Positions 3,128 through 19,462 of a stretch of 64,000 bases of DNA are shown here, one piece after another. Source of the stretch: Candidatus Woesearchaeota archaeon (GTDB lineage Archaea > Nanobdellota > Nanobdellia > Pacearchaeales > GW2011-AR1). The stretch covers positions 17 through 64,016 of the forward strand of contig CAYHEN010000001.1 in assembly GCA_964355745.1 (NCBI GenBank). Reading direction: 5' to 3'. The translations under genes and the position numbers were made by a program. The notes beneath the pieces were generated by a model. That model searched no databases and was not told the DNA's origin. It saw nothing but the letters and a program-made list of their open reading frames with translations. Within the stretch, counting starts at the first letter, position 1; the number at the start of each line of letters is the position of its first letter.

Positions 3128-4578
3128 ATGACATTTGTTTGATTAATCCTCCTTTAGATAAAAAAACAACAAGCAAATTTCCTATGTCTGGAGTTCCTTT
3201 GGGAATTGCGTGTTTAGCAGCTTATCTAAGAGAGAGAAAAATATCCTCACAAGTCATAGATGCTCCTATAAAAGGATGGAATTTTGAAAAAACAGCCATA
3301 GAAGCCATTAAATCCGGAGCAAAGATAATAGGAGTCAGTTGCTTAACAGAAAATAGATATTCCGCCTTAAAAACATTAGAAGAAATTAAAAAAAGAGATC
3401 CTGAAATCATCACAATAATCGGGGGATTGCATGCTACTTTCTTAGACAGATTATTGCTGGAAAATTATAAGTTTATTGACATTGTTGTCAGAGGAGAGGG
3501 AGAAGAAACCTTGTACGAATTAATCAAGGCAATAAAGAACAAAAAATCCATAGATAAAATTTTAGGAATCTCCTTCAGAAAGGGGAAAGAGGTAAAAATT
3601 AATCTTCCCAGATGCTTCATTGAGAGTATAGAAAACCTTCCTCTTCCTGCTTATGATTTATTCCCTATGAAAGAATACCCTCTGCCTCCTGATGTTAAAA
3701 ATGTGAAGCAAACAACTTTAGTAACAACTTCAAGAGGGTGCCCTATGGGATGTAAGTTCTGCGAAACAACTCTGGCTTGGGGAAAAAAAGTAAGAAGTAC
3801 CTCTGCTGAAAAGTTGTTTGAACAGGTTAAACAGTTAAATAAGGAATATGGAATTGATTATATCAGATTTGCCGATGATTTATTCACTCTTAAAAAAGAA
3901 AAAGTTATGAGATTTTGTGAGTTAGTAATCAAAAATAAGCTGCCTATCAAATTCAGGATACAGGCAAGAGTGGATACTGTTGACGAAGAAATGCTAAAAA
4001 TGTTAAAAAAAGCGGGTTGTGATCTGATTGAATATGGAGCAGAAGCAGGCTCTGATAAAGTCTTAAGAGCTATTGGAAAGAATATAACAATTGAGAGAAT
4101 AAAAAGAGCTTCTGCTTTAACAAAAAGGATTGGAATTGAACTAAAATTCTTTTTAATCATAGGTTCTTTGGAAGAAATTCCAGAAGACACCTGGGAAACT
4201 TTCGAATTAATAAAAGAAACAAGACCAGACTGGATAGGCATTAATGCTCTGACGATATATCCTGGAACTTATGTTTATGACATTGCAAAAAAAGAGGGGC
4301 TAATCAGCGACGATTTATGGCTTCATTATATAAATCCCAAAACAGGAAATGCCCCATTATATACAAAGAATTATTCAGACAAAGAAATGATTTTTTTGGC
4401 TCAATTAGGGCATGTTTGGGGTTGCAGGAATTCTGACAAAAAGAAATCTTATTCCTCATTGGAAAAAATACTCGCATTTTTATTAACAGAAAATTTTGCA
4501 AGGCTACTTGTTAAGAATAAAATTACGAGAAAAATTGCTGCTAATGTAGCATGGATTTTTTCTCCTCTTTTGCCATGA
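3124..4578 (+). CDS. B12-binding-domain radical SAM protein (class B type)
   Basis: N-terminal Rossmann-like B12-binding-type domain (IIGVSCLTENR...IIGGLHAT). Then SRGCPMGCKFC, the CxxxCxxC rSAM cluster. ATGA overlap with both neighbours. Confidence 0.8.
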   Translation: MNDICLINPPLDKKTTSKFPMSGVPLGIACLAAYLRERKISSQVIDAPIKGWNFEKTAIEAIKSGAKIIGVSCLTENRYSALKTLEEIKKRDPEIITIIGGLHATFLDRLLLENYKFIDIVVRGEGEETLYELIKAIKNKKSIDKILGISFRKGKEVKINLPRCFIESIENLPLPAYDLFPMKEYPLPPDVKNVKQTTLVTTSRGCPMGCKFCETTLAWGKKVRSTSAEKLFEQVKQLNKEYGIDYIRFADDLFTLKKEKVMRFCELVIKNKLPIKFRIQARVDTVDEEMLKMLKKAGCDLIEYGAEAGSDKVLRAIGKNITIERIKRASALTKRIGIELKFFLIIGSLEEIPEDTWETFELIKETRPDWIGINALTIYPGTYVYDIAKKEGLISDDLWLHYINPKTGNAPLYTKNYSDKEMIFLAQLGHVWGCRNSDKKKSYSSLEKILAFLLTENFARLLVKNKITRKIAANVAWIFSPLLP

Positions 4579-5573
4579 GAATTTTAGTTACAGGAGCCAG
4601 TGGATTTATTGGAAGCCATCTAGCTGAAAGGCTTGTTAAGGAAAAATATGATGTTAGAGTTTTGATTAGAAAAGAAAACCCCAAAAGAAGAAAAGACTCT
4701 TTGGAATTGCTTAAAAAATTAAAAGTAGAAATTATCAAAGGAGATTTGCTGGACAAAGAATCTTTGAAACATGCGATTAAAAATACAGATGTTATTTTTC
4801 ATTTGGCTGCAATAGCAAGACCAATGGCTATTCCTGATGAAGCATATTTTAAAGTAAACGAAGGAGGAACAAGAAATTTATTGGAGGTTTGTAGGGGTAA
4901 GAAAATAAAAAAAATAATCATAATGAGCAGCGTCTCTGCTGTAGGGACGACTAAAAACGGAATAGCAGTAAACGAACAAACAGAATGCAAACCAGTAGAC
5001 GTTTATGGGTGGAGCAAGCTCGCTGAAGAAAATGTTGCTATGGAGTATTTTAACAAGTACAAAATGCCTATTGTTATATTAAGGCCCCCGATGGTTTTTG
5101 GTGAAAGAGATTTTGAAATGCTCAAATTATTCAAAATTATAAGCAAGAGATTTTTTCCGATAAGCAGCAATATTAAGTGCATGGAATTTTTATATGCCGG
5201 AAATTTAGCCGAGGCATGCTTATTAGCAATGAAAAAAGGGAAAAATGGGGAGATATATCATATTTCAAATGGAGAGCATTACAGCATTAATGAAGTAGTC
5301 CATGCGATAGAAAAGGCGGGAAATAAAAAAATTTTTCCTGTGCAATTTCCAAAATTTATTATTATCTTTGGAGGCTATGTCTTGGAAACTCTTGGGAAAA
5401 TTTTCCATTTTCATCCGCCATTTAAACATGATACAATAGATTGGATGACTAAACAACTCTGGTATACTGACATCTCGAAAGCAGAAAGAGAGTTGATGTA
5501 TAAACCAATTTTCTCGCTTCAAGAAAGCATAAAAAAGACAGCAAATTATTATAAAGAGAGGGGTTATTTATAG
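4575..5573 (+). CDS. NAD-dependent epimerase/dehydratase (extended SDR)
   Basis: MRILVTGASGFIGSHL glycine-rich NAD-binding motif and the YGWSK YxxxK catalytic motif. Start trimmed to ATG 4575, which overlaps the upstream stop (ATGA). Track end coordinate kept. Confidence 0.8.
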   Translation: MRILVTGASGFIGSHLAERLVKEKYDVRVLIRKENPKRRKDSLELLKKLKVEIIKGDLLDKESLKHAIKNTDVIFHLAAIARPMAIPDEAYFKVNEGGTRNLLEVCRGKKIKKIIIMSSVSAVGTTKNGIAVNEQTECKPVDVYGWSKLAEENVAMEYFNKYKMPIVILRPPMVFGERDFEMLKLFKIISKRFFPISSNIKCMEFLYAGNLAEACLLAMKKGKNGEIYHISNGEHYSINEVVHAIEKAGNKKIFPVQFPKFIIIFGGYVLETLGKIFHFHPPFKHDTIDWMTKQLWYTDISKAERELMYKPIFSLQESIKKTANYYKERGYL

Positions 5574-5574
5574 A

Positions 5575-7005
5575 ATGAAAATAGTTTTTATAATAAAAAA
5601 ATTGAGTATTTCTGACCCTCTGGGAATTATGTGCCTATCATCTGCCCTCAAAGAAGCAGGGCATGAAACAGATTTGATATGTTTTGCAAAAGAGAATTTA
5701 TTTGAAAAACTGAGACAATTAAAACCTGATGTTGTTGCTTACAGCTTAACTACTGGTATGCATCAGGGATATATCTCTATAAATCAGGAAATTAAAAAAC
5801 ATTTTAAGGTATATTCTGTTTTTGGGGGGCCTCATCCTACTTTCTACCCTGAAATGATTAAAGAGGAAGGCGTAGATGCTGTATGCATAGGGGAAGGAGA
5901 AGAGGCTTTTGTTGAATTTGTAAACAAATTAGAAAAGAAAAAAGATGCAAGCAGGGTAAAAAACTTCTGGGTAAAAAATTCTAAGACAGGAAAGATAATA
6001 AAAAATCCATTAAGAATGTTAACTGAAAATTTGGATAAATTGCCTTTTGCTGACAGAGAATTGATTTACAAAAAAGACTCCTTTTTCGAAGGACTTGAAA
6101 TAAAAAGATTTATGACTGGCAGAGGATGTCCTTTCAAATGCACATATTGTTTTAACAGACAATATAATTCACTATATAAAGACAAAGGAAAAATTATCAG
6201 GCATAGAAGTGTGGATAATGTAATAAAAGAAATTCAGGAAATAAAAAGGAAATATCCTCTCAGAACTATTAAATTTATAGATGATACTTTTAATATAAAT
6301 TCTGTTTGGCTAAAAGAATTCTGTGAAAAATATAAAGAAAAAATAAATTTGCCATTCATATGCAATATACGTGCAGATTTAATAAATCCAGAAATGGTGC
6401 GACAATTAAGAAATGCAAATTGCATAGTCGTTTATATTGGCATTGAAACTGGAAATGAAAAAGTAAGAAGAGAAATATTAGAAAGAAATATGGGCAATGA
6501 ACAGATATTGAATGCATGCAGATTACTTAAAAAAGAAGGAATAAAGATAGTTGCACAGAACATGTTAGGGCTGCCAGGAGAAGATATAAATGGAACTTTT
6601 GAGACGATATTATTTAATTCAAAATGTAAGGTAGATTTTCCGGGATTTTCTATCTTTCAACCATATCCAGATACAGTTCTTACAGATTATGCAATAAGAA
6701 AAGGTTTTTTTGATGGGGATTTTGACAATTCTAATCCAGATTATCTGCGTAAGAGTCCATTAAAGCTTGGAATAAAAGAAAAAAGAGAGTTAGAAAACTT
6801 GAATAAATTTAGCAGCTTATTAGCAAAATTTCCTGTTTTAACTCCGATCATTCGTTTACTAATAAAATTCCCGGAAAATAAGGTATATAATTTAGTTTAT
6901 GCTTTATCTTATGGCATGTCTTTATGGAGTGTTTATTCAACTGCCTTTGGCTCTAATTTAAAACTTATAAAATCTGCTAAGAGGCTTTTAGAATACACTT
7001 TTTAA
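5575..7005 (+). CDS. B12-binding-domain radical SAM protein
   Basis: B12-binding-like N-domain (DVVAYSLTTG...VFGGPHPT...AVCIGEGEE) and GRGCPFKCTYC rSAM motif. Paralogous to 15932-17470 and 39697-41241. Confidence 0.8.
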   Translation: MKIVFIIKKLSISDPLGIMCLSSALKEAGHETDLICFAKENLFEKLRQLKPDVVAYSLTTGMHQGYISINQEIKKHFKVYSVFGGPHPTFYPEMIKEEGVDAVCIGEGEEAFVEFVNKLEKKKDASRVKNFWVKNSKTGKIIKNPLRMLTENLDKLPFADRELIYKKDSFFEGLEIKRFMTGRGCPFKCTYCFNRQYNSLYKDKGKIIRHRSVDNVIKEIQEIKRKYPLRTIKFIDDTFNINSVWLKEFCEKYKEKINLPFICNIRADLINPEMVRQLRNANCIVVYIGIETGNEKVRREILERNMGNEQILNACRLLKKEGIKIVAQNMLGLPGEDINGTFETILFNSKCKVDFPGFSIFQPYPDTVLTDYAIRKGFFDGDFDNSNPDYLRKSPLKLGIKEKRELENLNKFSSLLAKFPVLTPIIRLLIKFPENKVYNLVYALSYGMSLWSVYSTAFGSNLKLIKSAKRLLEYTF

Positions 7006-7010: not shown

Positions 7011-7538
7011 ATGGTTGACAAATTATCTGCTACTTATCTTAATAAAAATCCGATAATAAGAATTTTTAGCAGAACAAAAATAAAAATTGCTCTTATAATA
7101 GCGGATTTAAAAAAAGACGATTTAATATTGGATTTTGGATGTGGACAGGGTTGGCTGAAAAATAATCTTAAAGGACAGGGCTATAATATTATAGGATATG
7201 ACATAACTCCAGAGCACAGCGATGTGAAAGATTACACTAAAATAAAACCAGATAAAATATTTGCAATGGATGTTTTTGAGCATATCCCAAAAGAGGAAGT
7301 TAGGAAAACTATTAAAAATTTCAAAAAAATGAACCCTAATTTTGAACTCATAACTTCTATTCCCACAGAAAATTGGATTTCAAGAAAGGCGAGAAAGCTT
7401 CTGGGAAAGAGCGAGAGAGTTAAAGACCACATAACCAACCTGAAAGAGATTAAGGAAATTTTAAAAGAAGAATTGAAATTAGCAAAAAAATTTAATTTCC
7501 TGACAGTTAGCTATATCGCCAAATTTAAGAATATTTAA
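7011..7538 (+). CDS. Class I SAM-dependent methyltransferase
   Basis: ILDFGCGQGW (motif I) and DVFEHIP (post-motif II), as in Methyltransf_11/23. Confidence 0.65.
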   Translation: MVDKLSATYLNKNPIIRIFSRTKIKIALIIADLKKDDLILDFGCGQGWLKNNLKGQGYNIIGYDITPEHSDVKDYTKIKPDKIFAMDVFEHIPKEEVRKTIKNFKKMNPNFELITSIPTENWISRKARKLLGKSERVKDHITNLKEIKEILKEELKLAKKFNFLTVSYIAKFKNI

Positions 7539-9099
7539 TTTCATAAATAACAGCAACTGGCTTTTCCTGTTGGTAATATGCCTGAACAGGCATCATACTA
7601 GAATTATGTCTCTCTGGATAAGAGTACATCCAAGGTTCATGATATTCAAAGGAAGATAACATTAGGTATCTTGGTTTTATTCTTGATAAATTTCTTTGGA
7701 ATGTTGCTTCATCTGCCCCCATCTGGCCTAAGCCATAAGTGGTTCTCTCAGAATAATAAGTTATTTGTGGACGAGATTCAGAGATTATTATGTCTTGCGG
7801 ATTTGAATTTTCTTTCATCCATATTCCTGCCTGCTGTACTTCTAAATAAGAAGTCAGTTTGTTGTCTATCAAACCATTTGACCAAGCATAATTTGAAGGA
7901 GCACTACTAGTAAGGTTTATTATTAAAAGCAGTAAAAGAAAAATCATTGAAAGAGCATATATTACTTTCTTGCTTATTTTTGGATAATGCTTGTTTATTA
8001 GATTTCCTGCTTTTATTATAGGAGTTGCTGCAATTAAGAACAAAAATGGGAGAGTTGAAAGAATGTATCTGTGTTCCACCAATTGAGTTATATAACCTAA
8101 AACCAAGAATGGAACAACAATCCACAGGAAGATAAAAAATTTCTTTTGAACTTCCTCATTCTTGAAAATCTTATCCAATCCAAGAAACATGTCCTGAAAG
8201 AAAATAAATATTCCTATCACAAACAAAACAAGAATAGATTTGGTGAGAATATATGGCAAATCTTTGAAATAATCAAATATTGTTGAAACACTCCTTACAT
8301 TAGGTGTTGTGCTGGAAACTCCTGAAACTCCAAAATAGTGAGAAAGAATATCTGTAAAAATATTTCCATAGTGCGTCCAGTATAAAACAAAGAATGGGAG
8401 AAGAACTGCAAATGCCAAACCAACAGTTATCCAAAGGTGTTTATTCTTAATGAATTTGAATTTCTCCCTTGTAAATATGAAAACAAGGAAAGGAAGAGCA
8501 AACATCGCAAACTGGAATCTTGTTAACAATGAAAGAGCATAAAAAACTCCAAACAGGTATAAAAATTTATTTCCTTCTTTAAGAACATATCCTTTCCAAA
8601 AAAATAACAGAGCAAGCAGAAGAAAAAATGTTGCCGGAATATCTGTTAATATCCTTCCTGTAAAAAATAAAGAAACCCAAGAAAATAATACTCCTAAAGA
8701 CACTAAAATAGCAGTTTTTTTATCAAACATTTTAGAGATTATAAAATAAGAGAGGGCAACTAGAGATGTTGACATCAACATAACCAAAAACCTTACTCCT
8801 ATCTCCCCTAAACCAAATTTAAAAAATACAGCGCCGATTAGCGCCCATAGAAAACCTCTTCTGTAATACCAGATATCCCCTATATTCAATCCAAGCCCCC
8901 ATTCTTTAGCTGTAGAGAAATAATCTCCCTCGTCCCACCAAAGAGGCTGATGTGCAGTTTTTAAGAAAATCAAAAATCTTATTATAAATGCGGCTATTAG
9001 AAGAACAATAAATATTTTATCATAATTATCTTTTATCATAGAAGAAAGTTTTTTCTTTATAGAATTTTTTCTCTTTTCTATGTCTTCTTCCATTAACAA
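7525..9099 (-). CDS. GT-C fold membrane glycosyltransferase (PMT/ArnT-like, GT39/GT83 family)
   Basis: At least 10 predicted TM helices. N-terminal loop motif PLWWDEGDYFSTAKEW, resembling the DE/DD loop of PMT/ArnT-type lipid-linked-sugar transferases. Confidence 0.6.
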   Translation of the reverse strand: MLMEEDIEKRKNSIKKKLSSMIKDNYDKIFIVLLIAAFIIRFLIFLKTAHQPLWWDEGDYFSTAKEWGLGLNIGDIWYYRRGFLWALIGAVFFKFGLGEIGVRFLVMLMSTSLVALSYFIISKMFDKKTAILVSLGVLFSWVSLFFTGRILTDIPATFFLLLALLFFWKGYVLKEGNKFLYLFGVFYALSLLTRFQFAMFALPFLVFIFTREKFKFIKNKHLWITVGLAFAVLLPFFVLYWTHYGNIFTDILSHYFGVSGVSSTTPNVRSVSTIFDYFKDLPYILTKSILVLFVIGIFIFFQDMFLGLDKIFKNEEVQKKFFIFLWIVVPFLVLGYITQLVEHRYILSTLPFLFLIAATPIIKAGNLINKHYPKISKKVIYALSMIFLLLLLIINLTSSAPSNYAWSNGLIDNKLTSYLEVQQAGIWMKENSNPQDIIISESRPQITYYSERTTYGLGQMGADEATFQRNLSRIKPRYLMLSSFEYHEPWMYSYPERHNSSMMPVQAYYQQEKPVAVIYEIKYS

Positions 9100-9117: not shown

Positions 9118-9672
9118 TTATTTGTTTTTATTGTTTAAAATATAATGAGCTGCTTCTAACATATCTCTCGCTACAAACTCTGCTTCTTTTACTAGATTTT
9201 TTTCTTCTCGTATCAGAATATGAATTGTTCTGCATCCTGCATTTTTTCCAGTCTGTATATCTCTTAAAGAATCTCCAATCATCCAAGATTCTCTTAAATT
9301 TAGATTAAAATCTCTTGCTGCTTGTTCAAGCATTCCTGTTTTGGGTTTTCTACAATCACAATCAGATTTATATTTTTCTATTGTTCCGTTTGGATGATGC
9401 GGACAGAAGTATTCTGCATTTATGAAAATTTCATGTTCTTTTAATTTTTCATGCATTTCTTTTTTAAATCTAAAATAATCTTCTTCTGTATAATATCCTC
9501 TTGCAATTCCAGACTGATTTGTAATGATTATTAATTTGTATCCTGCTTGTCTCAGCAATTTTAATCCTTCTACAACATTAGGGAGAATTTCCAAATCTTC
9601 TATTTTGTAGACATAACCTTTATCCACATTAATAGTTCCATCTCTGTCCAAAAAAACTGCTTTATTTTCCAT
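9118..9672 (-). CDS. gmhB: D-glycero-D-manno-heptose 1,7-bisphosphate phosphatase GmhB (HAD family)
   Basis: VFLDRDGTIN, IIITNQSGIARGY, YFCPHHP and CDCRKPKTGM all match GmhB signature segments. Confidence 0.8.
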   Translation of the reverse strand: MENKAVFLDRDGTINVDKGYVYKIEDLEILPNVVEGLKLLRQAGYKLIIITNQSGIARGYYTEEDYFRFKKEMHEKLKEHEIFINAEYFCPHHPNGTIEKYKSDCDCRKPKTGMLEQAARDFNLNLRESWMIGDSLRDIQTGKNAGCRTIHILIREEKNLVKEAEFVARDMLEAAHYILNNKNK

Positions 9673-10720
9673 TTTTTAATATTTTTAAGTTTTGATAAAG
9701 GGACAAAAGAAAATTTCTATTGTTTTCTTTTATATAATGCATTTCTCTCGCATTCATTCTATGAAAAGTTTTGCAAAAACGCAAGTAATATGCGGGATTG
9801 CTTTTTTCTGGCTCGAATCCTTTGTTCCAATCCCCTCCTTCCTGAATATCATTTATAACAATTGTAAAATCTTCAATTCTCCTATTTTCCTGTCTTGCTA
9901 AATTTCTTGCCATAGATAAGGATTTTTCAAATATCATTGGAGACATTATTGCAGAACCCACTGAAATATAAATCCCTTCTTCTAATTTATTTACGCTATC
10001 AGCAAATTTCAGGAAATCTATTTCAGCGCATTTTCCTACTGAAGCACCATCGCTTAAGGGATGAGTATAAATTATATCATAACCAAATCCAGGATGGACT
10101 GTAAATGGAATTTTCATAAATACAGAATCCTGCACAGAATATTTTTTATAAGGATGATTAACTGTAATTTTGCAAGAATCTATGCCTTGTTTCATAAGTT
10201 TTTCTTTTAAGTTCTTGTTCTCATAAACTTCTCCAAGAATAGTTATCTCCTCATCATGAATCATTTCGCATACAGCTTCTCCATATCCTTTTCCTTTTTC
10301 TGCTCCTGAAATTAATGCTAAATTGATATATCGCCCTGTCTCTTCCCATAAACCAAATTGCCCTTCTTTGATATATTCTTCAACATCCTCTTCTGTCTTG
10401 CCTTGAAATGCAAACTCCCAGTCGTGAATAGAACCTGCCCCGTTTGTTGCTAGATGAGTAACAAAATCTTCTTCAATCATTCTCCTCAAAATTAAACCTA
10501 ACCCATTTTTTATCAGATGAGCTCCATAAACCATAATCACTTGTTTATCTCTTTTTCTTGCAACAATAATTTCTCTTGCTATTTTATTTATTAATTTAGA
10601 ATTTTGTGAATGGCAAAAAGGTGAATCATCTGGATTTACTGCTATTTCCTCTATAGAAGATTGATTTTTTCTTAATCCCAAGGGAAGAATTTTTAATTTG
10701 GTTCTGTCAAATAATCCCAT
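9662..10720 (-). CDS. Deoxyhypusine-synthase-like (DS family) protein
   Basis: VYGAHLIKNGLGLILRRMIEEDFVTHLATNGAGSIHDWE parallels the DHS core (..GYTSNLISSG...VDVLVTTAGGVEED). IVINDIQEGGDWNK parallels the DHS C-terminal INTAQEFDGSD segment. Recalled alignment, not a search. Confidence 0.5.
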   Translation of the reverse strand: MGLFDRTKLKILPLGLRKNQSSIEEIAVNPDDSPFCHSQNSKLINKIAREIIVARKRDKQVIMVYGAHLIKNGLGLILRRMIEEDFVTHLATNGAGSIHDWEFAFQGKTEEDVEEYIKEGQFGLWEETGRYINLALISGAEKGKGYGEAVCEMIHDEEITILGEVYENKNLKEKLMKQGIDSCKITVNHPYKKYSVQDSVFMKIPFTVHPGFGYDIIYTHPLSDGASVGKCAEIDFLKFADSVNKLEEGIYISVGSAIMSPMIFEKSLSMARNLARQENRRIEDFTIVINDIQEGGDWNKGFEPEKSNPAYYLRFCKTFHRMNAREMHYIKENNRNFLLSLYQNLKILKNGK

Positions 10721-10723: not shown

Positions 10724-12133
10724 TTATTCTTCAGATTTGGAATTTTTTATTTTTTTAATTGTGTCTGTTGTTGACAATTCTGAAAGCCCCTTAGGAAGAT
10801 ATATTTCCCCGTTGTAACTTTCTACAATTCTTCTTTCTTCCTGATTTATCGTATCTATCGTATAATCTCCTGATTTAAGATAGACATGGGGTTGTAATCT
10901 TTTTAGATATTCTGCTGCTTTCCCAAAAGGAAATATTGTTACATAATCCACAAAGCCCATTCCAGATAAAATTTCTGCTCTCTGTTCTTCATTATAAACA
11001 GGCCTCCCAGGACCTTTTAGTTTTCTAACAGATTCATCTGAATCCAAACCAACAATTAAAACATCCCCCCTTTTTCTGGCCTGTTCAAGAGAATATTTAT
11101 GTCCTGCATGAAATAAATCGAAACATCCATTTGTCCAAACAATTCTTCTCTGTTCTCTCTTTAATTCTCTCACTATCTCAGATAATTCATCAAGAGTTTT
11201 TAGTTTTCTTTCTTCTCCAGAAATTGCTTTTTCTAATTCCCATAATTTAACCTGGTAAGTCCCAACCTTACTCACTGAAATTCCTGCTGCATGATTTGCC
11301 AGAATTACTGCCTCTTCAAGAGAAGCTCCTGAAGCTAAAGATAAACAAATTGCTGCATTTGCAGTATCTCCTGCTCCTGCAACATCGTATACCTCTCTTG
11401 AAGATGTAGGTATCTCAACTTCATTATCTGAAAATAATGCCATTCCCTTTTCTCCGCGAGTAATAAGAACATTACAATTCAACATTTTTTGTAAATCTCT
11501 TCCTGCAGAATGAATCTCTCTCTGATTAGACATCTCTAAGGCTTCTTTTTCATTTGGAGTAATTAAAAAAGAATTTTTGTAGAAAGATATATTCTGTGGT
11601 TTAGGATCAACTACAATTTTTTTTCCAAGAGAGTTTAAAAAATCCATCAAATCTCCTGTTATTGTTCCTTTCGCATAATCTGAAATTAATATTAAATCTG
11701 AATTTCCAATTTCTCTTTTCATTGTTTCTAAAGTATCAGGACTAAAAATTTTTAGAGAATTCTCTTCATAATCTATTCTTAAAAGTTGCTGATTTCTACT
11801 CCTCACCCTTATTTTTAAGGTAGTAAGAGCATTCTTATCCAAAAAATATTCTATTCCTCTCTTTCCTAATATTTCTGATAGAACATTTGCATTATTATCT
11901 CTTCCAGCAAACCCAAACAAAGAAACATTTCCTCCAAGTGAGGCAAGATTTGCTGCAGTATTTGCTGCTCCTCCAGGCTCATAAAGTTCCTCTTTAACAT
12001 TAACTATCTGGATTGGCGCTTCAGGGGAGATTCTTGAAACCTCGCCTATAATGGTCTTGTCAAGCATAACATCTCCAATAACAGTTATCTTTCTCTTAGA
12101 AAAGCCCTTTAAGATTTCTAATAACCTTTCCAT
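10724..12133 (-). CDS. hldE: Bifunctional heptose-7-phosphate kinase / heptose-1-phosphate adenylyltransferase HldE (RfaE)
   Basis: N-domain: GDVMLDKTIIGEVSRISPEAPIQIV...GGAANTAANLASLG...DVAGAGDT (PfkB kinase, nearly identical signature to E. coli HldE). C-domain: VWTNGCFDLFHAGH...GLDSDESVRKLKG (cytidylyltransferase-like). Confidence 0.85.
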   Translation of the reverse strand: MERLLEILKGFSKRKITVIGDVMLDKTIIGEVSRISPEAPIQIVNVKEELYEPGGAANTAANLASLGGNVSLFGFAGRDNNANVLSEILGKRGIEYFLDKNALTTLKIRVRSRNQQLLRIDYEENSLKIFSPDTLETMKREIGNSDLILISDYAKGTITGDLMDFLNSLGKKIVVDPKPQNISFYKNSFLITPNEKEALEMSNQREIHSAGRDLQKMLNCNVLITRGEKGMALFSDNEVEIPTSSREVYDVAGAGDTANAAICLSLASGASLEEAVILANHAAGISVSKVGTYQVKLWELEKAISGEERKLKTLDELSEIVRELKREQRRIVWTNGCFDLFHAGHKYSLEQARKRGDVLIVGLDSDESVRKLKGPGRPVYNEEQRAEILSGMGFVDYVTIFPFGKAAEYLKRLQPHVYLKSGDYTIDTINQEERRIVESYNGEIYLPKGLSELSTTDTIKKIKNSKSEE

Positions 12134-12204
12134 TAATTTTTCTACAAAATCCAGTATAAAAAGATTATTATCTAAAGATATATATTTGAGATTATTTTGT
12201 AGTT

Positions 12205-13593
12205 TTAATCAAGGAAAGAGGACAAAGCCTCCTCATATAACCCTTCCACATAATCCAATTGTTCAAGTTCTTCTAAAGAAACCCACCTAAACTCTTCTGC
12301 TTCTTCATTTATCTTTACATCTCCTTTTTTTACATTTACAAGATAACATTTTCCTAATACCCTTTCCCCATTTTCCCAAGAATAAGAATAATCTGAAATC
12401 TTTTTTATTATTTGATTAAGTTCAAGATTAGTTTCTTCTTTTATCTCTCTTCTTAATGCTTCTTCAAGGGTCTCATTGTCTTCTACAACTCCTCCAGGAA
12501 AAGCCCATTTCTTCTTATGAATCCCTTCGTTTCTTTTAACTATCAAAATTTTTTCATTATCTTTTATAATAGCATTAACAACTCTCTTTGTCTTTTGAGA
12601 ATTTTCCAAGGCATTTAAAACTTCATCAGCAGAAATACTCTTTACCAATTCCTTGTCATATTCGTTCATTTTTTCTGGAAAAAAATCATATAATCTTGGG
12701 GAAATTATTTTTTTTAATAATCCATAATCCTCAATTTCATTTGGAGATGTGCAAAAAAATAATCCTATTGTTGGTTTTTTAAGAGCTAAGGAAACATGCA
12801 AAGAAGTACTATCTGAACAAACCATTTTGGTACATAAATTTACTAATGACGCAAATTCTTTCAAAGTATTATTAGGATTATTTCTATAAACTTTAATTCC
12901 TTTTTCTTCTAAGTCCTTGGAGAATTTCTCATGTATATCTATTTCATCCGGCCCCCCAAACAATAATATTTCACATCCTCTTTGTTTAGCCTTCTCAATA
13001 AATTCTTTAATATTTTCTAAATCCCATACTTTAGAAGGCCATCTAGTAGAAGCACCCATATGTATTCCTATTAATTTTTTTGTATTAATGTTATTTTTAT
13101 TTACAAAATCTTCTGCATATTTTATATTCCTTTCAGTTAAATAAAGGGGGTGATGTTGTTTTTTATAAGGAAGTTCTGCTGCTTCAAACATCATTTGCTG
13201 ATAAGTTTTGGTATTTATTTTTTTTAATTTATCATCAAAAAGAGTATTAAGATAATATTCTGCAGGAAAATTAAATGCGGCCGGATATCCCCCTTCTGAA
13301 AAAAATCCATATTTTTCTTTTGCTTTTATCTCCTCTGCTAATTTTGTTGCATCTTCTTCTATATCAAAATTTAATAAAATATCAAATTCTTCTAAAAATT
13401 CTTTTAAATTAAGGGGAATTGTTAAAATTTTGTTTATATAAGGACTCATTTCTAAAATTTCTCTAGATGGGGGTTTTGTAATCCAACTTATCTCAGAATC
13501 AGAATATTTCTCTTTTATCGCTATTAATGAAGGAAGTGTTCTGATTACATCTCCTTTTGCTCCAAGTTTTATTACCAATATCTTCTTTACCAC
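12205..13593 (-). CDS. GT9 heptosyltransferase fused to a C-terminal NUDIX hydrolase domain
   Basis: N-terminus KILVIKLGAKGDVIRTLPSLIAIK matches the GT9 (ADP-heptose:LPS heptosyltransferase) start. C-terminal ~130 aa has the NUDIX box GGVVEDNETLEEALRREIKEETNL. Confidence 0.7.
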   Translation of the reverse strand: MVKKILVIKLGAKGDVIRTLPSLIAIKEKYSDSEISWITKPPSREILEMSPYINKILTIPLNLKEFLEEFDILLNFDIEEDATKLAEEIKAKEKYGFFSEGGYPAAFNFPAEYYLNTLFDDKLKKINTKTYQQMMFEAAELPYKKQHHPLYLTERNIKYAEDFVNKNNINTKKLIGIHMGASTRWPSKVWDLENIKEFIEKAKQRGCEILLFGGPDEIDIHEKFSKDLEEKGIKVYRNNPNNTLKEFASLVNLCTKMVCSDSTSLHVSLALKKPTIGLFFCTSPNEIEDYGLLKKIISPRLYDFFPEKMNEYDKELVKSISADEVLNALENSQKTKRVVNAIIKDNEKILIVKRNEGIHKKKWAFPGGVVEDNETLEEALRREIKEETNLELNQIIKKISDYSYSWENGERVLGKCYLVNVKKGDVKINEEAEEFRWVSLEELEQLDYVEGLYEEALSSFLD

Positions 13594-13655: not shown

Positions 13656-14075
13656 ATGAAAGTTTATATTGCCGGAAAATTAGGAACAGAAAGTGAGAAG
13701 AAACAGCTGGAAGAAATAGCAGAGATATGCAATTCTCTTGATATTAAAACTTTTTTGCCTCATAAAGATATAGGAATTTGCAAGGATGTTAAAGATGTGG
13801 GTGATATATTTAAAGGAGATATAATCGAAGGACTCAGAAATTGTGATTTAGTAATCGCCTTGCTTGATGGACTTCATGTTGGGGCAGGAACTGCTTGGGA
13901 ACTCGGTTATGCTTATGCTAAAGGAATTCCTACTATTGGCGTAAAGACAGACGAAGAAATTGAAGATGCAATTGAATATTTAAGTGCAATTTTAATAGCA
14001 TCAACACCAATTGTTAAATCTTTGAATGAATTAAAGGAAAAATTAAAAGAATTCAAAAATAAAAAATTAATCTAA
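13656..14075 (+). CDS. Nucleoside 2-deoxyribosyltransferase-like (NDT/LOG-like fold) protein
   Basis: MKVYIAGKLG...DLVIALLDGLHVGAGTAWELGYAYAKGIPTIG resembles the Nuc_deoxyrib_tr family. Confidence 0.45.
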   Translation: MKVYIAGKLGTESEKKQLEEIAEICNSLDIKTFLPHKDIGICKDVKDVGDIFKGDIIEGLRNCDLVIALLDGLHVGAGTAWELGYAYAKGIPTIGVKTDEEIEDAIEYLSAILIASTPIVKSLNELKEKLKEFKNKKLI

Positions 14076-14990
14076 TGGGCTAGTTGATTTTATTTCTATT
14101 TCTCTCCAACCATCAGAATACACTTTTTCATCATTCATATCTTTAAACGCTTTATTATAAATTTTATATCTTGCTTTTAAAAGATTTAATGTCCATGAGA
14201 ATTCTTTAAAATTTTTAGGATAAAAGATAGTATGAAAAAAACCATATTTAATTTCATTCCAAAAAGTTTTTGTTCTTGGCATTTCTGGAAATAATTTGCT
14301 GAGATTCTCGTGTCCTTTTATATTTCTTAATTTCTGATTTTCCCAATCTTTTATATTATCTGGATTTTTTACATAAACTTCTACATTAGAAAGATACTTT
14401 ATTTTGTATCCTTTTTGCCAGAATAAATATGGGATTACAGAATCTTCTGAAACATCAAGCGGAAAATCCTGGATTACTCCTTTGCGTATTGCAAATAAAT
14501 ATCCAGAACATTCAAAGAATTTTTTCTCATTAGATAATTTTTCCCTAATCCTATGAATTCCTGAAAGTAATAAATGGGACCAATAACCAAATTGAGTATT
14601 TCTCTTATCAACAGGAATTGGTTTTCCTGTGACACAACCGATTTCTTTGTTTTTGAAAGCAGTTGAAATTTCATTAATCGCATTATCTGAAACATAAACA
14701 TCTCCGTCTGTAAGAATGAATATATCTTCTTTCTTATCTGATTTCAATTTTTTAAACAATAGATTAAGAGCATAACTTTTTCCCTCTCCAGGATCCAGAA
14801 AAAATCCTACTCTTTTATCTTTTATTTCTTTTTTTATAAACTCCCTAACCTCTTCAAATGGATCGCAGATAATTATTCTAAACTCTTCTTGTGTATTTTG
14901 ATTTAAGAAAGCGTTAACTGCTCTTAAAGTGGATTTGGGTTCATTATAAGAGGTTACGATTATATCTATCATTTTATTAAACAGAATCAA
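14067..14990 (-). CDS. Glycosyltransferase family 2
   Basis: MIDIIVTSYNE start, and an ILTDGD DxD motif. GT-A fold. Confidence 0.7.
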   Translation of the reverse strand: MILFNKMIDIIVTSYNEPKSTLRAVNAFLNQNTQEEFRIIICDPFEEVREFIKKEIKDKRVGFFLDPGEGKSYALNLLFKKLKSDKKEDIFILTDGDVYVSDNAINEISTAFKNKEIGCVTGKPIPVDKRNTQFGYWSHLLLSGIHRIREKLSNEKKFFECSGYLFAIRKGVIQDFPLDVSEDSVIPYLFWQKGYKIKYLSNVEVYVKNPDNIKDWENQKLRNIKGHENLSKLFPEMPRTKTFWNEIKYGFFHTIFYPKNFKEFSWTLNLLKARYKIYNKAFKDMNDEKVYSDGWREIEIKSTSPLD

Positions 14991-15171
14991 AGGGGTAATC
15001 TTCTGGACGTATGAGGACTATTTTCTCTTGTTTTGGAGAAAGTGCAACAATTCTTACTTTTCTCATACCATGTTTTCCTATATCAGATATTTCTAGTTCT
15101 TCTATAGTATATTGTTGGCTTGCTAAAATTATTTTGTCTCCCTTTTTTAACTGCCTTGCGGGTTTTTTCAT
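14977..15171 (-). CDS. Truncated aIF5A-like protein (SH3/KOW N-domain only, hypusine-site loop GKHG retained)
   Basis: LKKGDKIILASQQYTIEELEISDIGKHGMRKVRIVA matches the aIF5A N-domain pattern (..vIDGePCrIVEIekSKtGKHGsAKaRIva). The protein stops after 64 aa, so the C-terminal OB domain is absent. Confidence 0.45.
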   Translation of the reverse strand: MKKPARQLKKGDKIILASQQYTIEELEISDIGKHGMRKVRIVALSPKQEKIVLIRPEDYPFDSV

Positions 15172-15221: not shown

Positions 15222-15935
15222 ATGAAACATGCTTTAGTATTATGCTCTGGAGGATTGGACAGTGTTGTAACTGCACATTATGTAAAAAAAAGATTAAATT
15301 GCTCAGATGTTAAGATAATTTTTTTTAATTATAATCAAAAGAGCCTTGTTCAGGAAAGAAATTGCTCTAAAAAATGTGCCAAAGAGATTTCTGCAGAATT
15401 TATTGAAATAGATGTAAGATGGCTGGGAAATATTACAAGAAATTTGGGTAATAAGCCAAAAAAAATTACGAGAAAAAAATTAAAAGATAGTTCTGAAGAG
15501 TCTAAGAAGTTATATGTCCCATGCAGGAATATTATCTTTCTTGTTTATTCTCTCGCATTTGCAGAGTCTTTATATATTAAAAGGAAGAAAAAGTATGACT
15601 TATTTGTAGGATTCAAGAACGAAGGAAAAGAAGCATATCCAGATACAACCCCTAAGTTTGTAAATGAAATGAATAGATTAAGCAAAATAGGTTGCTATAA
15701 AGATTTTCAAATTAAAGCCCCATTAATAAAAAAAGACAAAGAAGATATTATAAGACTTGGAGCCCAACTCAGAGTTAATCTAAAAAATACATTCAGCTGT
15801 TATAACAGCATTGGGGGGAAGCATTGTGGTTACTGCTTATCCTGCAGATTAAGGCAGGAGGGGTTTTATTGGGCAGATATAAAAGACCCTACACACTATA
15901 AGGTAAAAATGAAAGATTTTAGAAAATCTAATTAA
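15222..15935 (+). CDS. queC: 7-cyano-7-deazaguanine synthase QueC (PP-loop ATPase)
   Basis: ALVLCSGGLDS PP-loop, and a C-terminal Zn-binding CYNSIGGKHCGYCLSCRLR cluster. Confidence 0.8.
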   Translation: MKHALVLCSGGLDSVVTAHYVKKRLNCSDVKIIFFNYNQKSLVQERNCSKKCAKEISAEFIEIDVRWLGNITRNLGNKPKKITRKKLKDSSEESKKLYVPCRNIIFLVYSLAFAESLYIKRKKKYDLFVGFKNEGKEAYPDTTPKFVNEMNRLSKIGCYKDFQIKAPLIKKDKEDIIRLGAQLRVNLKNTFSCYNSIGGKHCGYCLSCRLRQEGFYWADIKDPTHYKVKMKDFRKSN

Positions 15936-17470
15936 ACTCTGTATCTAATCTTATCATACCATATTTTGAAATTTACAGGGGTGGAATGATAGAGGGGTTT
16001 TAGTATTTTTTCTCTTAATAAATCCATTATCTCAACGAATTTTAAGGCTATTTTAGTCATAAAAGGATTTTTTATATTCTTCTCAACTCTCTTGGAAAAT
16101 AAGAGCCAATTAATTAAAAAAGAAGGCATAAATCCAAATCTTTTTTCTGTAACAGAACCTCTCATTAAATTCAGAATTAAAACAAGATATGCATTTTTCT
16201 CTTTTAATTTAATATGCTTTGCTCTATCCCAGTAATTTAATTTGTAAGCAGCATCTTTTTCTGATTTTATTGTTCCATCTGTAACTGCTCTTCTGTATAA
16301 CTGCGAGCCAGGGAAAAAAACAAGGTTGTTTATAGAAAGATAATAGGGTTTGGGAAGTTTTTGCAAAAGACGGATCAGGCTGATTACATCTTCTTGTTTT
16401 TCATATGGATTGCAAGTAATAACATCGTACATCACTGCTAATTTTTCTTTGTATTTGTTTAATATTTCGGCTGCTTTCAAGACATCATTATCTGTCTGAT
16501 TTCTATGATATATATCTAAATTTGTTCTCTCGCTTCCCTGTATCCCTATAATGATATCTGTGCATCCTGCATCAACTAGTAATTTTATTTTTTCATCAGA
16601 AACTGTATGGGGGTCTGCCAAACATTTGAATCTCATCTTGACATTTTCTTTGTAAAGTCTGCAGAATTTTTTTATGTCTTCTAAAGCCCTTAAAGAAAAG
16701 GTATCATCTCTTATATCAAAATAACCAAGCGTTGTAGGGAATTTTTTTTTCAATTCTAGAATTCCTTTTATGATATATTCTGGAGAATGCCACCTTAAAA
16801 TAGATTTTCTCTTCCCTTCATAGAGCTTGTTGAAAAAGGAATTGCTGCAATAGTCACATCCATAAGGACAGCCTCTTCCTGTTAAAAAAAAGATTTGTCC
16901 TGCTAAATCATACTCTCTGAACTTTCTTATTCTTCCCTTATCAAGAATATAATGATTTTCTATATCATAATCTGGAAGAGGCAGAGAATCTAAGTCATTT
17001 ATAAGATTCCTAACAGGGTTTTTTATTATTTTATCACTTTTTCTTATCCAAAGATTTTTTATTTTTTCGAAGTTTTTTATTTTTTCTACGGCTTTTGCTA
17101 AATCTACTATTGCTTCTTCCCCTTCTCCAACACAAACAATATCTGCAACCTTTATACAATCTTCTGGCGAGATTGTCGCATGAACGCCCCCATATATTAT
17201 TGGAACATCTAAATTTTTTTTCAAAAAAGAAATTATTCTTGAAGCTCTTTGCGATGTTGAAGCGAAAGAGTTTATTCCAATCAATCTGCTATCCTTACAA
17301 AGTCCCAATAACTGAATCAATTCTGAAGAAGTGTAATTCTTTGAGTAATCTTCGCTAAGAGCCATAAAAACAATTTTAACTTCATGCCCTTCTTTTTTTA
17401 AAACACTTGATATTGTTCTTATTCCCTGATCAGAAGGAAAAGTCGAAGTGGATATGAGCGTTATCTTCAT
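15932..17470 (-). CDS. B12-binding-domain radical SAM protein
   Basis: B12-like N-domain plus GRGCPYGCDYCSN. About 50-55% identical over the N-terminal half to 39697-41241 (same motifs: VCVGEGEEAI, GRGCPYGCDYCSN). Confidence 0.8.
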   Translation of the reverse strand: MKITLISTSTFPSDQGIRTISSVLKKEGHEVKIVFMALSEDYSKNYTSSELIQLLGLCKDSRLIGINSFASTSQRASRIISFLKKNLDVPIIYGGVHATISPEDCIKVADIVCVGEGEEAIVDLAKAVEKIKNFEKIKNLWIRKSDKIIKNPVRNLINDLDSLPLPDYDIENHYILDKGRIRKFREYDLAGQIFFLTGRGCPYGCDYCSNSFFNKLYEGKRKSILRWHSPEYIIKGILELKKKFPTTLGYFDIRDDTFSLRALEDIKKFCRLYKENVKMRFKCLADPHTVSDEKIKLLVDAGCTDIIIGIQGSERTNLDIYHRNQTDNDVLKAAEILNKYKEKLAVMYDVITCNPYEKQEDVISLIRLLQKLPKPYYLSINNLVFFPGSQLYRRAVTDGTIKSEKDAAYKLNYWDRAKHIKLKEKNAYLVLILNLMRGSVTEKRFGFMPSFLINWLLFSKRVEKNIKNPFMTKIALKFVEIMDLLREKILKPLYHSTPVNFKIWYDKIRYRV

Positions 17471-17587: not shown

Positions 17588-19462
17588 ATGAAAGCATTGA
17601 TATTAGCAGGAGGAAGGGGGAGCAGATTAAACGAATTCACAAAAGACAAAAACAAGAGCATGATTCCTCTTCTTGAAAAGCCTATAATAGAATATAATTT
17701 AGAGCACGCAGTTGAAGCAGAAGTCAGCGAGATTATAATTGTTATAGGATATAAGGGGAAAGAAATTAAGAAATATATCGGAGAGGAATACAGAGGAATT
17801 CCTGTGAGATATGCTACACAAAAAGAACAGAGAGGACTTGTTCATGCAATCGAATGTGCTAAAGAAGCCATTGGAAATTCTGATTTTTTTCTGATGCTGG
17901 CAGATGAGATTATTCCAAAAGCAAGAATAAAAGACATGGTTAAGAAATTCAAGAAAGAAGAATTATTTGCTGTTTGTGGTGTGGTTTATGAAAGCGATAA
18001 ATTAAGCATAGGAAAGACTTATTCTGCAATGACAAATGAAAGAGGAAGAACTTTTAGATTAATAGAAAAACCAAAAGGGGTCATAAATAAAATTAAAGGG
18101 ACAGGACATTGCATTTTGAAAAATGAAATGCTCGGATATATTGATAGAACTCCGATAAATGCTAACAGAGGGGAAAAAGAATTAGTTGATTGGATTCAGG
18201 TTGCTATTGACGATGGAAAAAAAGTCTATGTCTATCCTATAAACAAAAGCGGATATGTAAATATTAATACAAAAGAGGATTATGAATTGGCAAAAGAATT
18301 GATAAGAAAATCAAATCTAAAAGTTTTGATTGTTCACACGCAGATGAAATATCTTGGAGGAGCAGAATTGCTTATTACTGAACTGGCTAATTGGATGACA
18401 AAAAAGGGAATTAAGAATGATATCCTTGCTCTGTCAAAATCAGGAGAAGCTGAGAGGAATCTGATAAATACAAAAATAATCATTCCAAGGCACAATATTA
18501 ACTTACAACCGCCGGGATTCAAAACAACAAAAGAGATAATAGAATTTATCAGAGTTTATAGAAGAGAGTTAAGAAAGATAATAAAAAATTATGATGTAAT
18601 TAATTTTCATAATTTTCCTGTTACATGGACTTTATCTCCAAGAAAAAAGCCCTGCGTTTGGATGTTGAATGAACCTCCAAATTTATGGAGCAAACCAAAA
18701 GCAAATTTTATTTTAAAGATATTAAACAAAATAAGAAACAGAATAGACAAGGAGATTGTTAAAAATTCTATTGACATCATTTGTGTGGCAGATGAGTTCA
18801 ATAAAGAAAGGACAGAAGAGAGGTATAGGAAAAAGGTAAGAATTGTTTATTATGGGGTTAATCATGAATTTTTTTCTAAAGGAAATGCGAATAATGCTAT
18901 AAAAAAATTTAATCTAAAAAACAAGTTTGTTGTTATTCAGTCAGGCATGATAATTGATACTAAAAACCAGTTAGAAAGTGTAAAGATAATAAATAAAATC
19001 AAGGAGAAAATTCCTTCTGTTCTTTTAGTCTTAGCAGGAAAAATTGCAGATGAAGCATACAAAAAGAAAATAGACAACCATATACAAGAAAATAAGCTTG
19101 AAAAAAATATCTTATTTACTGGAAATTTAAACAGAGAAGAATTAAGAGATTTATACAAGGCTTCAGATATCGGATTATTTCCTGTTGGCAGGCAGGGAGG
19201 GGGGCTTGCGCCCTTTGAAATGCTATGTGCAGGAGTGCCAATAATTGTATCAGAAGATATAGGTGCTGCTTCTATAATAAAAAAATTTGATTTAGGGATA
19301 GCAACAAAAGATTATGCAAATTCTTTATTGGAGATTCATAAAAATAAAAAGCAATATAAAAAGCAGGCAAAAATAGCCTCTGAATTTATCCAAAAAAATT
19401 TGGGCTGGAATGTTTTCAGCGATAAAATGATAAAGGCATTTGAAGATGCAATGAGAAGATAA
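17588..19462 (+). CDS. Sugar-1-phosphate nucleotidyltransferase fused to a GT4 glycosyltransferase
   Basis: N-terminus MKALILAGGRGSRL (G1P thymidylyl/uridylyltransferase signature). C-terminus GGGLAPFEMLCAGVPIIVSEDIG (GT4/GT-B EX7E-region-like). Confidence 0.7.
   Translation: MKALILAGGRGSRLNEFTKDKNKSMIPLLEKPIIEYNLEHAVEAEVSEIIIVIGYKGKEIKKYIGEEYRGIPVRYATQKEQRGLVHAIECAKEAIGNSDFFLMLADEIIPKARIKDMVKKFKKEELFAVCGVVYESDKLSIGKTYSAMTNERGRTFRLIEKPKGVINKIKGTGHCILKNEMLGYIDRTPINANRGEKELVDWIQVAIDDGKKVYVYPINKSGYVNINTKEDYELAKELIRKSNLKVLIVHTQMKYLGGAELLITELANWMTKKGIKNDILALSKSGEAERNLINTKIIIPRHNINLQPPGFKTTKEIIEFIRVYRRELRKIIKNYDVINFHNFPVTWTLSPRKKPCVWMLNEPPNLWSKPKANFILKILNKIRNRIDKEIVKNSIDIICVADEFNKERTEERYRKKVRIVYYGVNHEFFSKGNANNAIKKFNLKNKFVVIQSGMIIDTKNQLESVKIINKIKEKIPSVLLVLAGKIADEAYKKKIDNHIQENKLEKNILFTGNLNREELRDLYKASDIGLFPVGRQGGGLAPFEMLCAGVPIIVSEDIGAASIIKKFDLGIATKDYANSLLEIHKNKKQYKKQAKIASEFIQKNLGWNVFSDKMIKAFEDAMRR

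Follow-up and report, generated by a model that had tools for sequence, protein, structure and literature searches.

The system reported here is closest to the heptosyltransferases of glycosyltransferase family 9 (GT9) and to minimal Nudix hydrolases of the MutT/NudI/NudG type, and Nudix hydrolases that act on sugar donors offer a functional analogy. In the heptosyltransferase WaaC, D13 is presumably the catalytic base, and K192, E222 and D261 are taken here, from the WaaC structures, to be ligands of ADP-heptose. NudD/WcaH, the GDP-mannose mannosyl hydrolase of the E. coli colanic-acid cluster, is thought to limit or clean the donor supply, and AspP/NudF is an ADP-sugar pyrophosphatase. A gene that joins a GT9 domain to a Nudix domain, termed GT9-Nudix in the following, is located on a 64,000-nt stretch (the window) of contig CAYHEN010000001.1 from a Candidatus Woesearchaeota archaeon, one of the small, symbiotic-type DPANN archaea. 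New here are the coupling of a Nudix domain to a heptosyltransferase by fusion or within an operon, which is conserved and recurs, and a GT9/GT-C module of DPANN archaea.

In the open reading frame (ORF) listing of the 64-kb window, GT9-Nudix is a single uninterrupted ORF of 462 amino acids (aa) with a GTG start. Its features are:

12205..13593, minus strand: complete GT9-Nudix ORF, 462 aa, stop codon at 12205-12207
12592..13593, minus strand: GT9 domain (GT-B fold), residues 1-334, delimited by Pfam PF01075, Foldseek, phmmer alignment to WaaC and conservation
12208..12591, minus strand: Nudix domain, residues 335-462, delimited by Pfam PF00293, AlphaFold2 (AF2), Foldseek and PDB profile search
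12424..12492, minus strand: Nudix box G368-L390 (GVVEDNETLEEALRREIKEETNL), the catalytic metal-binding motif, from the ORF translation, the fusion alignment and clade conservation

Glyco_transf_9 (PF01075) was matched at residues 124-298 (7.3e-23; 81.6 bits, gathering cut-off 22) and NUDIX (PF00293) at residues 336-447 (2.5e-22; 79.7 bits, cut-off 21.1). An initial annotation of a GT9 N-terminus and a C-terminal NUDIX box on a single polypeptide is borne out by this one 462-aa ORF with both domains above their cut-offs. KILVIKLGAKGDVIRTLPSL corresponds to residues 4-23 of the ORF and GGVVEDNETLEEALRREIKEETNL to residues 367-390. The Nudix box, G368-VVEDN-E374-TLEEALR-R382-E383-I-K-E386-E387-T-N-L390, contains all glutamates of the REx2EE motif and matches the pattern GX5EX7REUXEEXGU except that the penultimate Gly is an Asn. 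No other Nudix box occurs in the window. An AF2 model of the full protein was computed from a 71-sequence alignment, with a mean predicted local distance difference test score of 94.4 and a predicted template modelling (TM) score of 0.80. The final GT-B helix (residues 322-334) enters the first strand of the Nudix alpha/beta/alpha sandwich (residues 336-462) without a disordered linker, and the Nudix domain is predicted to be rigidly attached to the last GT9 helix.

In a Foldseek search against the PDB, the GT9 half matched the GT9 protein of Veillonella parvula (3tov, 5.4e-18), E. coli HepII (1psw, 5.7e-15) and WaaC (7.9e-14). Target-normalised TM scores to the solved GT9 structures (3tov, 1psw, WaaC 2h1h/6dfe) range from 0.67 to 0.75. 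According to phmmer, residues D15, K188, E217 and D261 align with D13, K192, E222 and D261 of WaaC. Among 84 homologs, K188 is kept in all 84, D261 in 83, D15 in 82 and E217 in 76, with Asp in the other eight. The equivalog cut-offs of the heptosyltransferase models are missed widely (TIGR02193, 72.7 of 185.3 bits; TIGR02195, 59.9 of 134.6; TIGR02201, 53.8 of 170.2), and because of this the GT9 half is judged not to be an ortholog of HepI, HepII or HepIII. Fold, Pfam and active-site tests place it in family GT9, as a predicted divergent archaeal branch with a non-lipopolysaccharide (non-LPS) acceptor; an LPS acceptor (Kdo or lipid A) is implausible for an archaeal GT9. That ADP-heptose is the donor is suggested by the operon context with HldE-like and GmhB genes described below.

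The Nudix half resembles minimal MutT-type Nudix structures, with target-normalised TM scores of 0.75-0.83 (Foldseek against the PDB). The matches comprise a putative CTP pyrophosphohydrolase (3gwy), BdRppH (3ees), an Ap4A hydrolase (3i7u), NudI (6dt3), MutT (4dyw) and MutT2 (5zro). The equivalog cut-offs for MutT, NudG and NudI are all missed (NF008044, 51.5 of 148 bits; TIGR00586, 50.0 of 97.9; NF012016, 48.4 of 95; NF007834, 43.0 of 156). Judged from its sequence, the domain is a bona fide hydrolase closest to the MutT/NudI/NudG group and an equivalog of none of them. The catalytic REx2EE glutamates, which the initial annotation had singled out for checking on alignment, are present and invariant in 20 of 20 aligned fusions. 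All 67 clade members keep the whole box, and 46 of them have the G at the penultimate position. Since the donor-binding and catalytic residues of GT9 are kept and the Nudix box is intact, both halves look catalytically competent, and the gene is predicted to encode a bifunctional enzyme of a DPANN archaeon with two activities. A degenerate, non-catalytic Nudix domain serving as an NrtR-like ligand sensor was also considered and is ruled out by the box being intact in all 67 members.

A homolog search over 5.8 billion protein clusters returned 637 relatives, and the architecture was counted in the best 120. At least 49 of these are full-length GT9+NUDIX clusters (50-71% identity), 69 are GT9 proteins without a partner domain, about 330 aa long and 60-69% identical across GT9, and two bear another C-terminal domain in place of Nudix. 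Domain co-occurrence, which the initial annotation had proposed to look up, was thus found in 49 of the best 120 clusters. Labelled sources of the fused clusters are all DPANN archaea, namely metagenome-assembled genomes (MAGs) of Pacearchaeota, Woesearchaeota and Nanoarchaeota. In an alignment of 20 fusions, the junction is well conserved; D15, K188, D261 and H266 are invariant in the GT9 half and G367, G368, E374, R382, E383, E386 and E387 in the Nudix half. A frameshift or stop codon between the domains, considered in the initial annotation, was looked for and not found, and the architecture is shared by at least 49 fused clusters and 9 of 80 surveyed GTDB loci.

The GT9-Nudix architecture itself is already present in public databases under generic names, such as 'NUDIX domain-containing protein' and 'glycosyltransferase family 9 protein' (Candidatus Pacearchaeota/Nanoarchaeota). 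The JGI name is 'ADP-heptose:LPS heptosyltransferase/8-oxo-dGTP pyrophosphatase MutT'. No paper on the architecture was found in full-text literature searches on heptosyltransferases, ADP-heptose, DPANN and Nudix-glycosyltransferase fusions. The earlier impression that it is unfamiliar among characterised heptosyltransferases therefore holds for the literature searched but not for the databases, which contain dozens of such DPANN proteins.

Split forms were searched for with the Nudix domain only and by an exhaustive HMMER search of 1.84 billion representatives. Stand-alone Nudix proteins of 126-135 aa with 47-61% identity to the fused domain were found. In three of four inspected loci, a GT9 gene ends immediately upstream; the fourth contig, of 1.2 kb, is too short to identify neighbors. 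HldE or PMT_2 is the next gene downstream wherever that gene could be identified. The GT9/Nudix junctions read TAAnATG or ATGA, which is typical of translationally coupled cistrons and argues for these rather than for sequencing errors. Every clade member of at least 46% identity with an identifiable upstream flank is adjacent or fused to GT9. The next-closest Nudix proteins examined (38-44% identity) are found in unrelated genomic contexts. The fusion partners of farther relatives are cytidylate kinase, Rce1-like, HD-CE, TIR, amidohydrolase and radical-SAM/wyosine domains, none of them heptose-related. In a metagenome scan, Nudix peptide patterns proved too generic, with 1 of 80 loci belonging to the clade, but the scan brought up L131, described below.

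The two relatives with another C-terminal domain carry enzymes of heptose synthesis. One (P0038, 512 aa) combines GT9 with a HAD/GmhB phosphatase domain that is 58% identical to GmhB of the window, and the other (P0067, 554 aa) combines GT9 with a SIS_2/GmhA isomerase. In a metagenome contig (L093; JGI 3300009157, Ga0105092_10133533), bases 3-1037 encode a GT9 C-terminus, an HldE adenylyltransferase domain and a Nudix domain in a single frame. The Nudix domain of L093 is 57% identical to that of the window, and a GSU2086-family gene follows (1061-1372). Further arrangements were seen at related loci: an HldE-kinase+GmhA fusion (L028) and a GT9 protein with a C-terminal extension of about 100 aa in which no domain was identified (L062).

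At another metagenome locus (L131; Ga0209542_10000500, 2472-5282), a distant Nudix protein, 38% identical and with an intact box, is encoded on the opposite strand, flanked by homologs of PMT_2 (33%) and GT2 (41%) of the window. No GT9 was found within this 8.4-kb locus, which hints that Nudix may associate with the GT2/GT-C module more generally.

GT9-Nudix opens a tightly packed operon on the minus strand, which continues with HldE-like, GSU2086-family, GmhB and GT-C genes. The members of the operon and of the adjacent syntenic block are:

10724..12133, minus strand: HldE-like bifunctional heptose-7-phosphate kinase/heptose-1-phosphate adenylyltransferase (NF008454, 6.6e-122, under the equivalog cut-off; PfkB and CTP_transf_like domains)
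9662..10720, minus strand: GSU2086-family protein (NF052581, 7.7e-95, above cut-off)
9118..9672, minus strand: GmhB (TIGR00213, 187 bits against a cut-off of 149.6; NF006506, 185 against 178)
7525..9099, minus strand: PMT_2/GT-C membrane glycosyltransferase (Pfam PF13231 and PF02366; synteny)
13656..14075, plus strand: nucleoside 2-deoxyribosyltransferase-like (NDT-like) protein, divergent neighbor of GT9 (PF05014, 1.9e-17; PDB 7m5h, 7e-10)
14067..14990, minus strand: GT2 glycosyltransferase, member of the syntenic block (PF00535; synteny)
14977-15171, minus strand: aIF5A-like ORF of 64 aa, N-terminal domain only (Pfam score under cut-off)

The aIF5A-like ORF keeps its size of about 64 aa in most related loci. 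A GmhA gene was sought within the window, not the whole genome, and was not found there. The C-terminal motif GLSELSTT of the HldE-like protein does not cleanly fit the published STTR5 pattern, a motif of HldE that has been tied to CTP/UTP promiscuity (PMC11461863). Archaeal enzymes of ADP-heptose biosynthesis were described earlier by Tang et al. 2024, according to a statement in PMC11461863.

To place the operon among related genomes, GTDB was scanned with one genome per species, which yielded 118 species with the GT9 clade; the best 80 loci were surveyed by ORF prediction and BLAST. Nearly all carry archaeal MAG labels (Pacearchaeota, Woesearchaeota, Nanoarchaeota, 'archaeon') and two are labelled bacterial. 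The conserved block consists of QueC(-), aIF5A(+), GT2(+), NDT-like(-), GT9(+) and PMT_2(+). Between GT9 and PMT_2 lies a variable slot that is either empty or occupied by Nudix (fused or separate) and/or HldE, separate kinase and adenylyltransferase halves, GmhA, GmhB and GSU2086. Irrespective of Nudix and heptose genes, PMT_2/GT-C comes after GT9 in most of the 80 loci. The NDT-like gene diverges from GT9 in nearly all of them, whether Nudix is present or not. Nudix is fused in nine loci, split in three, absent from 64 and cut off by the contig end in four. With this window and three metagenome loci added, the total is 10 fused and 6 split forms (n=16). Heptose-synthesis genes are found in 7/16 Nudix-bearing loci versus 12/64 loci that lack Nudix (Fisher p = 0.05). 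Replacement of GmhA or GmhB by Nudix was considered and ruled out: Nudix co-occurs with GmhB (the window and L007) and with GmhA (L011 and L015), and no complementarity was seen.

The GSU2086-family protein appears to be a conserved, uncharacterised component of ADP-heptose operons in bacteria and DPANN archaea. In Geobacter sulfurreducens, GSU2086 lies between hldE (GSU2085) and gmhA (GSU2087) and shows a similar defect in transposon sequencing (Tn-seq). At L011, positions 10945-12495 encode a GSU2086-family protein fused to an HldE adenylyltransferase domain. Further copies are present in L036, L043 and L093. The protein has weak similarity to the Rossmann fold of deoxyhypusine synthase/ArgZ, and no solved relative was found by sequence. 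It possibly provides a missing step of the epimerase or isomerase type.

From its context, the Nudix domain may control the pool of nucleoside diphosphate (NDP)-heptoses. With ADP-heptose from the enzymes of the operon as donor, GT9 would transfer heptose to a non-LPS acceptor, which would be a glycan linked to a lipid or else a carrier that the GT-C enzyme uses later. Nudix would act on the nucleotide-sugar donor pool and, by hydrolysis, release nucleoside monophosphate and sugar-1-phosphate from ADP-heptose, or from non-cognate NDP-heptoses and ADP-hexoses that the adenylyltransferase produces. Donor supply would thereby be limited or cleaned at the point of use, and Nudix would be an optional accessory rather than an obligatory step of the pathway. 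We regard hydrolysis of NDP-heptose or of non-cognate NDP-sugars, as an optional device for pool control or editing, as quite possible and adopt it tentatively. It is preferred because ADP-heptose joins its maker, the adenylyltransferase, to its consumer, GT9. A link of Nudix to heptose is plausible, given that the operon continues with HldE-like and GmhB genes and that the Nudix clade is seen only adjacent or fused to GT9, in the slot that also takes heptose-synthesis genes. The same is suggested by the alternative C-terminal partners of GT9, GmhB and GmhA, both of which are ADP-heptose enzymes, by the Nudix domain of L093 that stays attached with an adenylyltransferase domain interposed, and by the slight enrichment of heptose genes in Nudix-bearing loci. 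The more specific proposal, in which Nudix is an editing or throttling module for NDP-heptose coupled to the glycosyltransferase within an undescribed heptose-based surface glycosylation system of DPANN archaea, is considered unlikely. Such a module would selectively destroy non-cognate donors (CDP- or UDP-heptose, ADP-hexoses, the wrong C6 epimer) from a promiscuous adenylyltransferase or cap free ADP-heptose. The system would comprise GT2, GT9 and GT-C, with the GSU2086-family enzyme in the donor pathway.

Several observations weigh against control of the NDP-heptose pool. Hydrolysis of the enzyme's own donor would be a futile cycle unless Nudix is selective. Nudix is carried by about 10-20% of the species with this GT9, and since a full-length query ranks fused forms highest, the true figure for the 118 species is about 10%. 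Nudix-bearing sequences are scattered over a neighbor-joining tree of the GT9 domain, a pattern that fits an old association with repeated loss. Many Nudix-bearing loci lack a heptose-synthesis gene within 8 kb, and synteny is kept even for the unrelated QueC and aIF5A, so that adjacency is weak evidence. The triple arrangement of L093 comes from a lone 1.4-kb metagenome contig with one in-frame stop in the adenylyltransferase domain and could be a triple fusion or else reflect a pseudogene or sequencing error; a search for a second adenylyltransferase-Nudix fusion returned L093 only.

The relatives of the Nudix domain likewise count against this role. The nearest characterised ones are (d)NTP pyrophosphohydrolases (MutT, 1.8e-16; NudI, 1.1e-15), with CTP pyrophosphohydrolase, RppH and Ap4A hydrolases also among the nearest by HMM, profile and fold. 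Within the top 60 PDB profile matches there is no GDP-mannose hydrolase, no ADP-ribose or ADP-sugar pyrophosphatase except NadM-Nudix, and no chain of the NudF/AspP type. A Pro about 16 residues past the Nudix box reportedly marks ADP-ribose pyrophosphatases, as described by Dunn et al. in 1999. In the 67 Nudix-bearing members, this Pro was not found; the clade has YxYxR at +12, +14 and +16 after the box, with no dominant residue at +15 or +17. ADP-ribose and ADP-sugar pyrophosphatases of the NudF/AspP type possess an N-terminal beta-domain for a swapped dimer; no such domain is seen in the AF2 model, where Nudix begins directly after the GT9 helix. The domain thus appears to be without the hallmarks of this type. 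For the suggestion of the initial annotation that Nudix proofreads the NDP-heptose pool, this means that the ADP-heptose link is plausible by the operon, whereas the activity is a guess from context, given a Nudix domain unlike the ADP-sugar and ADP-ribose pyrophosphatases.

Among the other explanations, the Nudix domain could be an ordinary house-cleaning (d)NTP pyrophosphohydrolase of the MutT/NudG/NudI kind that is independent of heptosylation. It would have been the downstream neighbor of GT9 in an ancestral DPANN genome and have become joined to it when a stop codon was lost. The closest matches in sequence, profile and fold (MutT, NudI, CTP pyrophosphohydrolase, MutT2) agree with this origin, as do the single Nudix box in the window, the patchy distribution of a dispensable domain that also exists in split form, and the strongly kept synteny of the clade, which includes functionally unrelated genes. 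One would, however, expect most genomes to have a sanitiser, and its neighbors to vary, whereas all clade members with an identifiable upstream flank are adjacent or fused to GT9. The other partners at the GT9 C-terminus are heptose-pathway enzymes, L093 retains Nudix after an interposed adenylyltransferase domain, and the MutT, NudI and NudG cut-offs are all missed widely. A house-cleaning role is the main rival and is considered somewhat less likely than control of the donor pool. An action of Nudix on the acceptor or carrier side appears improbable. Here, Nudix would hydrolyse polyprenyl (dolichyl) diphosphate, or an intermediate linked through a diphosphate, down to the monophosphate and so supply or recycle the lipid carrier for GT9 and the downstream GT-C. 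PMT_2/GT-C almost always comes after GT9, and enzymes of this class use polyprenyl-phosphate sugars. NudI and plant NUDX1, both among the Nudix sequence matches, hydrolyse prenyl diphosphates. The Nudix domain is attached to the C-terminal GT-B helix, which in GT-B enzymes generally packs on the acceptor-binding N-domain, and the arrangement at L131 places a Nudix between GT2 and PMT_2 homologs in a locus free of GT9. Against this, no lipid-binding feature was identified in Nudix, most genomes with the GT9/GT-C pair are without Nudix, and KWAFPGG and YxYxR, both conserved, resemble nucleotide-binding features of MutT. The Nudix protein of L131 is just 38% identical, and its orthology is not clear.

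The initial annotation had also offered hydrolysis of the ADP released by GT9. Such a reaction (ADP to AMP and Pi) would ease product inhibition, and it would suit a Nudix domain physically fused to an ADP-releasing enzyme; some MutT-type Nudix enzymes hydrolyse NDPs, and Golgi NDPases relieve glycosyltransferases in this way. It is nevertheless quite unlikely on biochemical reasoning, as ADP is a bulk cytosolic metabolite at millimolar levels, and local hydrolysis would barely lower its level and would waste adenylate energy. The domain is, moreover, absent from most orthologous GT9 proteins. Septacidin biosynthesis offers a different analogy for the NDT-like neighbor. This pathway starts from ADP-heptose and AMP, with later removal of ribosyl-5-phosphate (PMC9978623). 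SepE moves heptose from ADP-heptose to N6 of AMP, and SepF removes ribose-5-phosphate. By speculative analogy, GT9 would act on a nucleotide in the manner of SepE, with AMP supplied by Nudix, and the NDT-like protein would take the part of SepF. Divergence of an NDT-family gene from GT9 in nearly all loci is in line with this scheme, but the downstream GT-C membrane transferase points to envelope glycosylation. The NDT neighbor is also present irrespective of Nudix, and clade synteny is generally kept. The scheme is very improbable. Finally, a frameshift or mis-assembly could have joined two genes, for which the split GT9/Nudix pairs of some genomes might be cited. The 49 independent clusters are, in contrast, uninterrupted and come from different assemblies and sources with a conserved junction, and the AF2 model is confident across it; an artefact has next to no probability and is ruled out on these grounds.

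Other features of the window were recorded alongside. A plus-strand gene at 17588-19462 encodes a 624-aa fusion of a sugar-1-phosphate nucleotidyltransferase (AglF/RmlA-like) and a GT4 glycosyltransferase, and thus another fusion of donor synthesis and transferase in the genome that carries GT9-Nudix. Three B12-binding radical S-adenosylmethionine (SAM) proteins (3124-4578, plus strand; 5575-7005, plus strand; 15932-17470, minus strand) are encoded within 15 kb of glycosylation genes. The remaining features are:

4551-5573: SDR epimerase/dehydratase, near the B12-binding radical SAM genes
7011-7538: methyltransferase, near the B12-binding radical SAM genes
1961-3127: protein of the type I phosphodiesterase/nucleotide pyrophosphatase family, near the B12-binding radical SAM genes
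57242-57330, minus strand: fourth tRNA, an Rfam match missed by ARAGORN, possibly intron-containing or atypical
58018-58132, plus strand: 5S rRNA gene (Rfam)

Domain fusions are common; the GT9-Nudix architecture is real and clean, and its proposed function is inferred from context. If Nudix acts on NDP-heptose, the glycosyltransferase would have quality control of its donor pool built in, which is rare, and a dedicated editing module would be the first 'proofreading domain' described on such an enzyme. The protein would also be a ready-made reagent for dissecting the metabolism of ADP-heptose, which is an innate-immune agonist. If Nudix is an unrelated MutT-like sanitiser, the gene is an ordinary neighbor-gene fusion in a reduced genome. 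Whatever Nudix does, LPS-less Pacearchaeota-type DPANN archaea keep a conserved GT9 and GT-C module. An ADP-heptose pathway, complete or in part, often accompanies this module and implies that uncultured archaea have heptosylated surface structures. Attention is also drawn to the uncharacterised GSU2086-family protein, which the locus shares with bacterial heptose operons.

Compared with known systems, the fused Nudix domain finds its best sequence, profile and fold matches in the MutT/NudI/NudG type (5X1X, 6DT3, 2RRK, 3GWY), with which it shares a canonical Nudix box, W-x-FPGG and a compact fold that spans about 130 aa. It differs in being at most 28% identical to the PDB structures matched by Foldseek and under every curated equivalog cut-off, in its clade-specific YxYxR, and in always being fused or adjacent to GT9 where the context can be identified. 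NudD/WcaH and AspP/NudF are functional analogies for the proposed role, as Nudix enzymes encoded in a polysaccharide pathway or acting on its donor pool; unlike the fused domain, they are separate proteins of other Nudix subfamilies, and none is among the top 60 PDB matches. NadM-Nudix (2QJT, 2QJO; NMN adenylyltransferase/ADP-ribose pyrophosphatase) gives weak sequence and fold matches and shows that fusion of a Nudix domain to an enzyme of nucleotide metabolism in a related pathway has a precedent, although its partner domain is another one and its Nudix is an ADP-ribose pyrophosphatase. The GT9 half, taken to work in the manner of WaaC and WaaF, has the GT-B fold and the GT9 Pfam match in common with WaaC (HepI), WaaF (HepII) and the V. 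parvula GT9 protein (2H1H, 1PSW, 3TOV). It also keeps the catalytic Asp and the donor-binding Lys, Glu and Asp, and the genes of ADP-heptose synthesis alongside it are a further likeness to WaaC/WaaF. It is, in contrast, just 16-19% identical to these proteins and far under the HepI, HepII and HepIII cut-offs, and its archaeal host is without LPS, so that the acceptor must differ. Unlike WaaC and WaaF, the archaeal GT9 carries a C-terminal Nudix domain and pairs with a GT-C membrane transferase.

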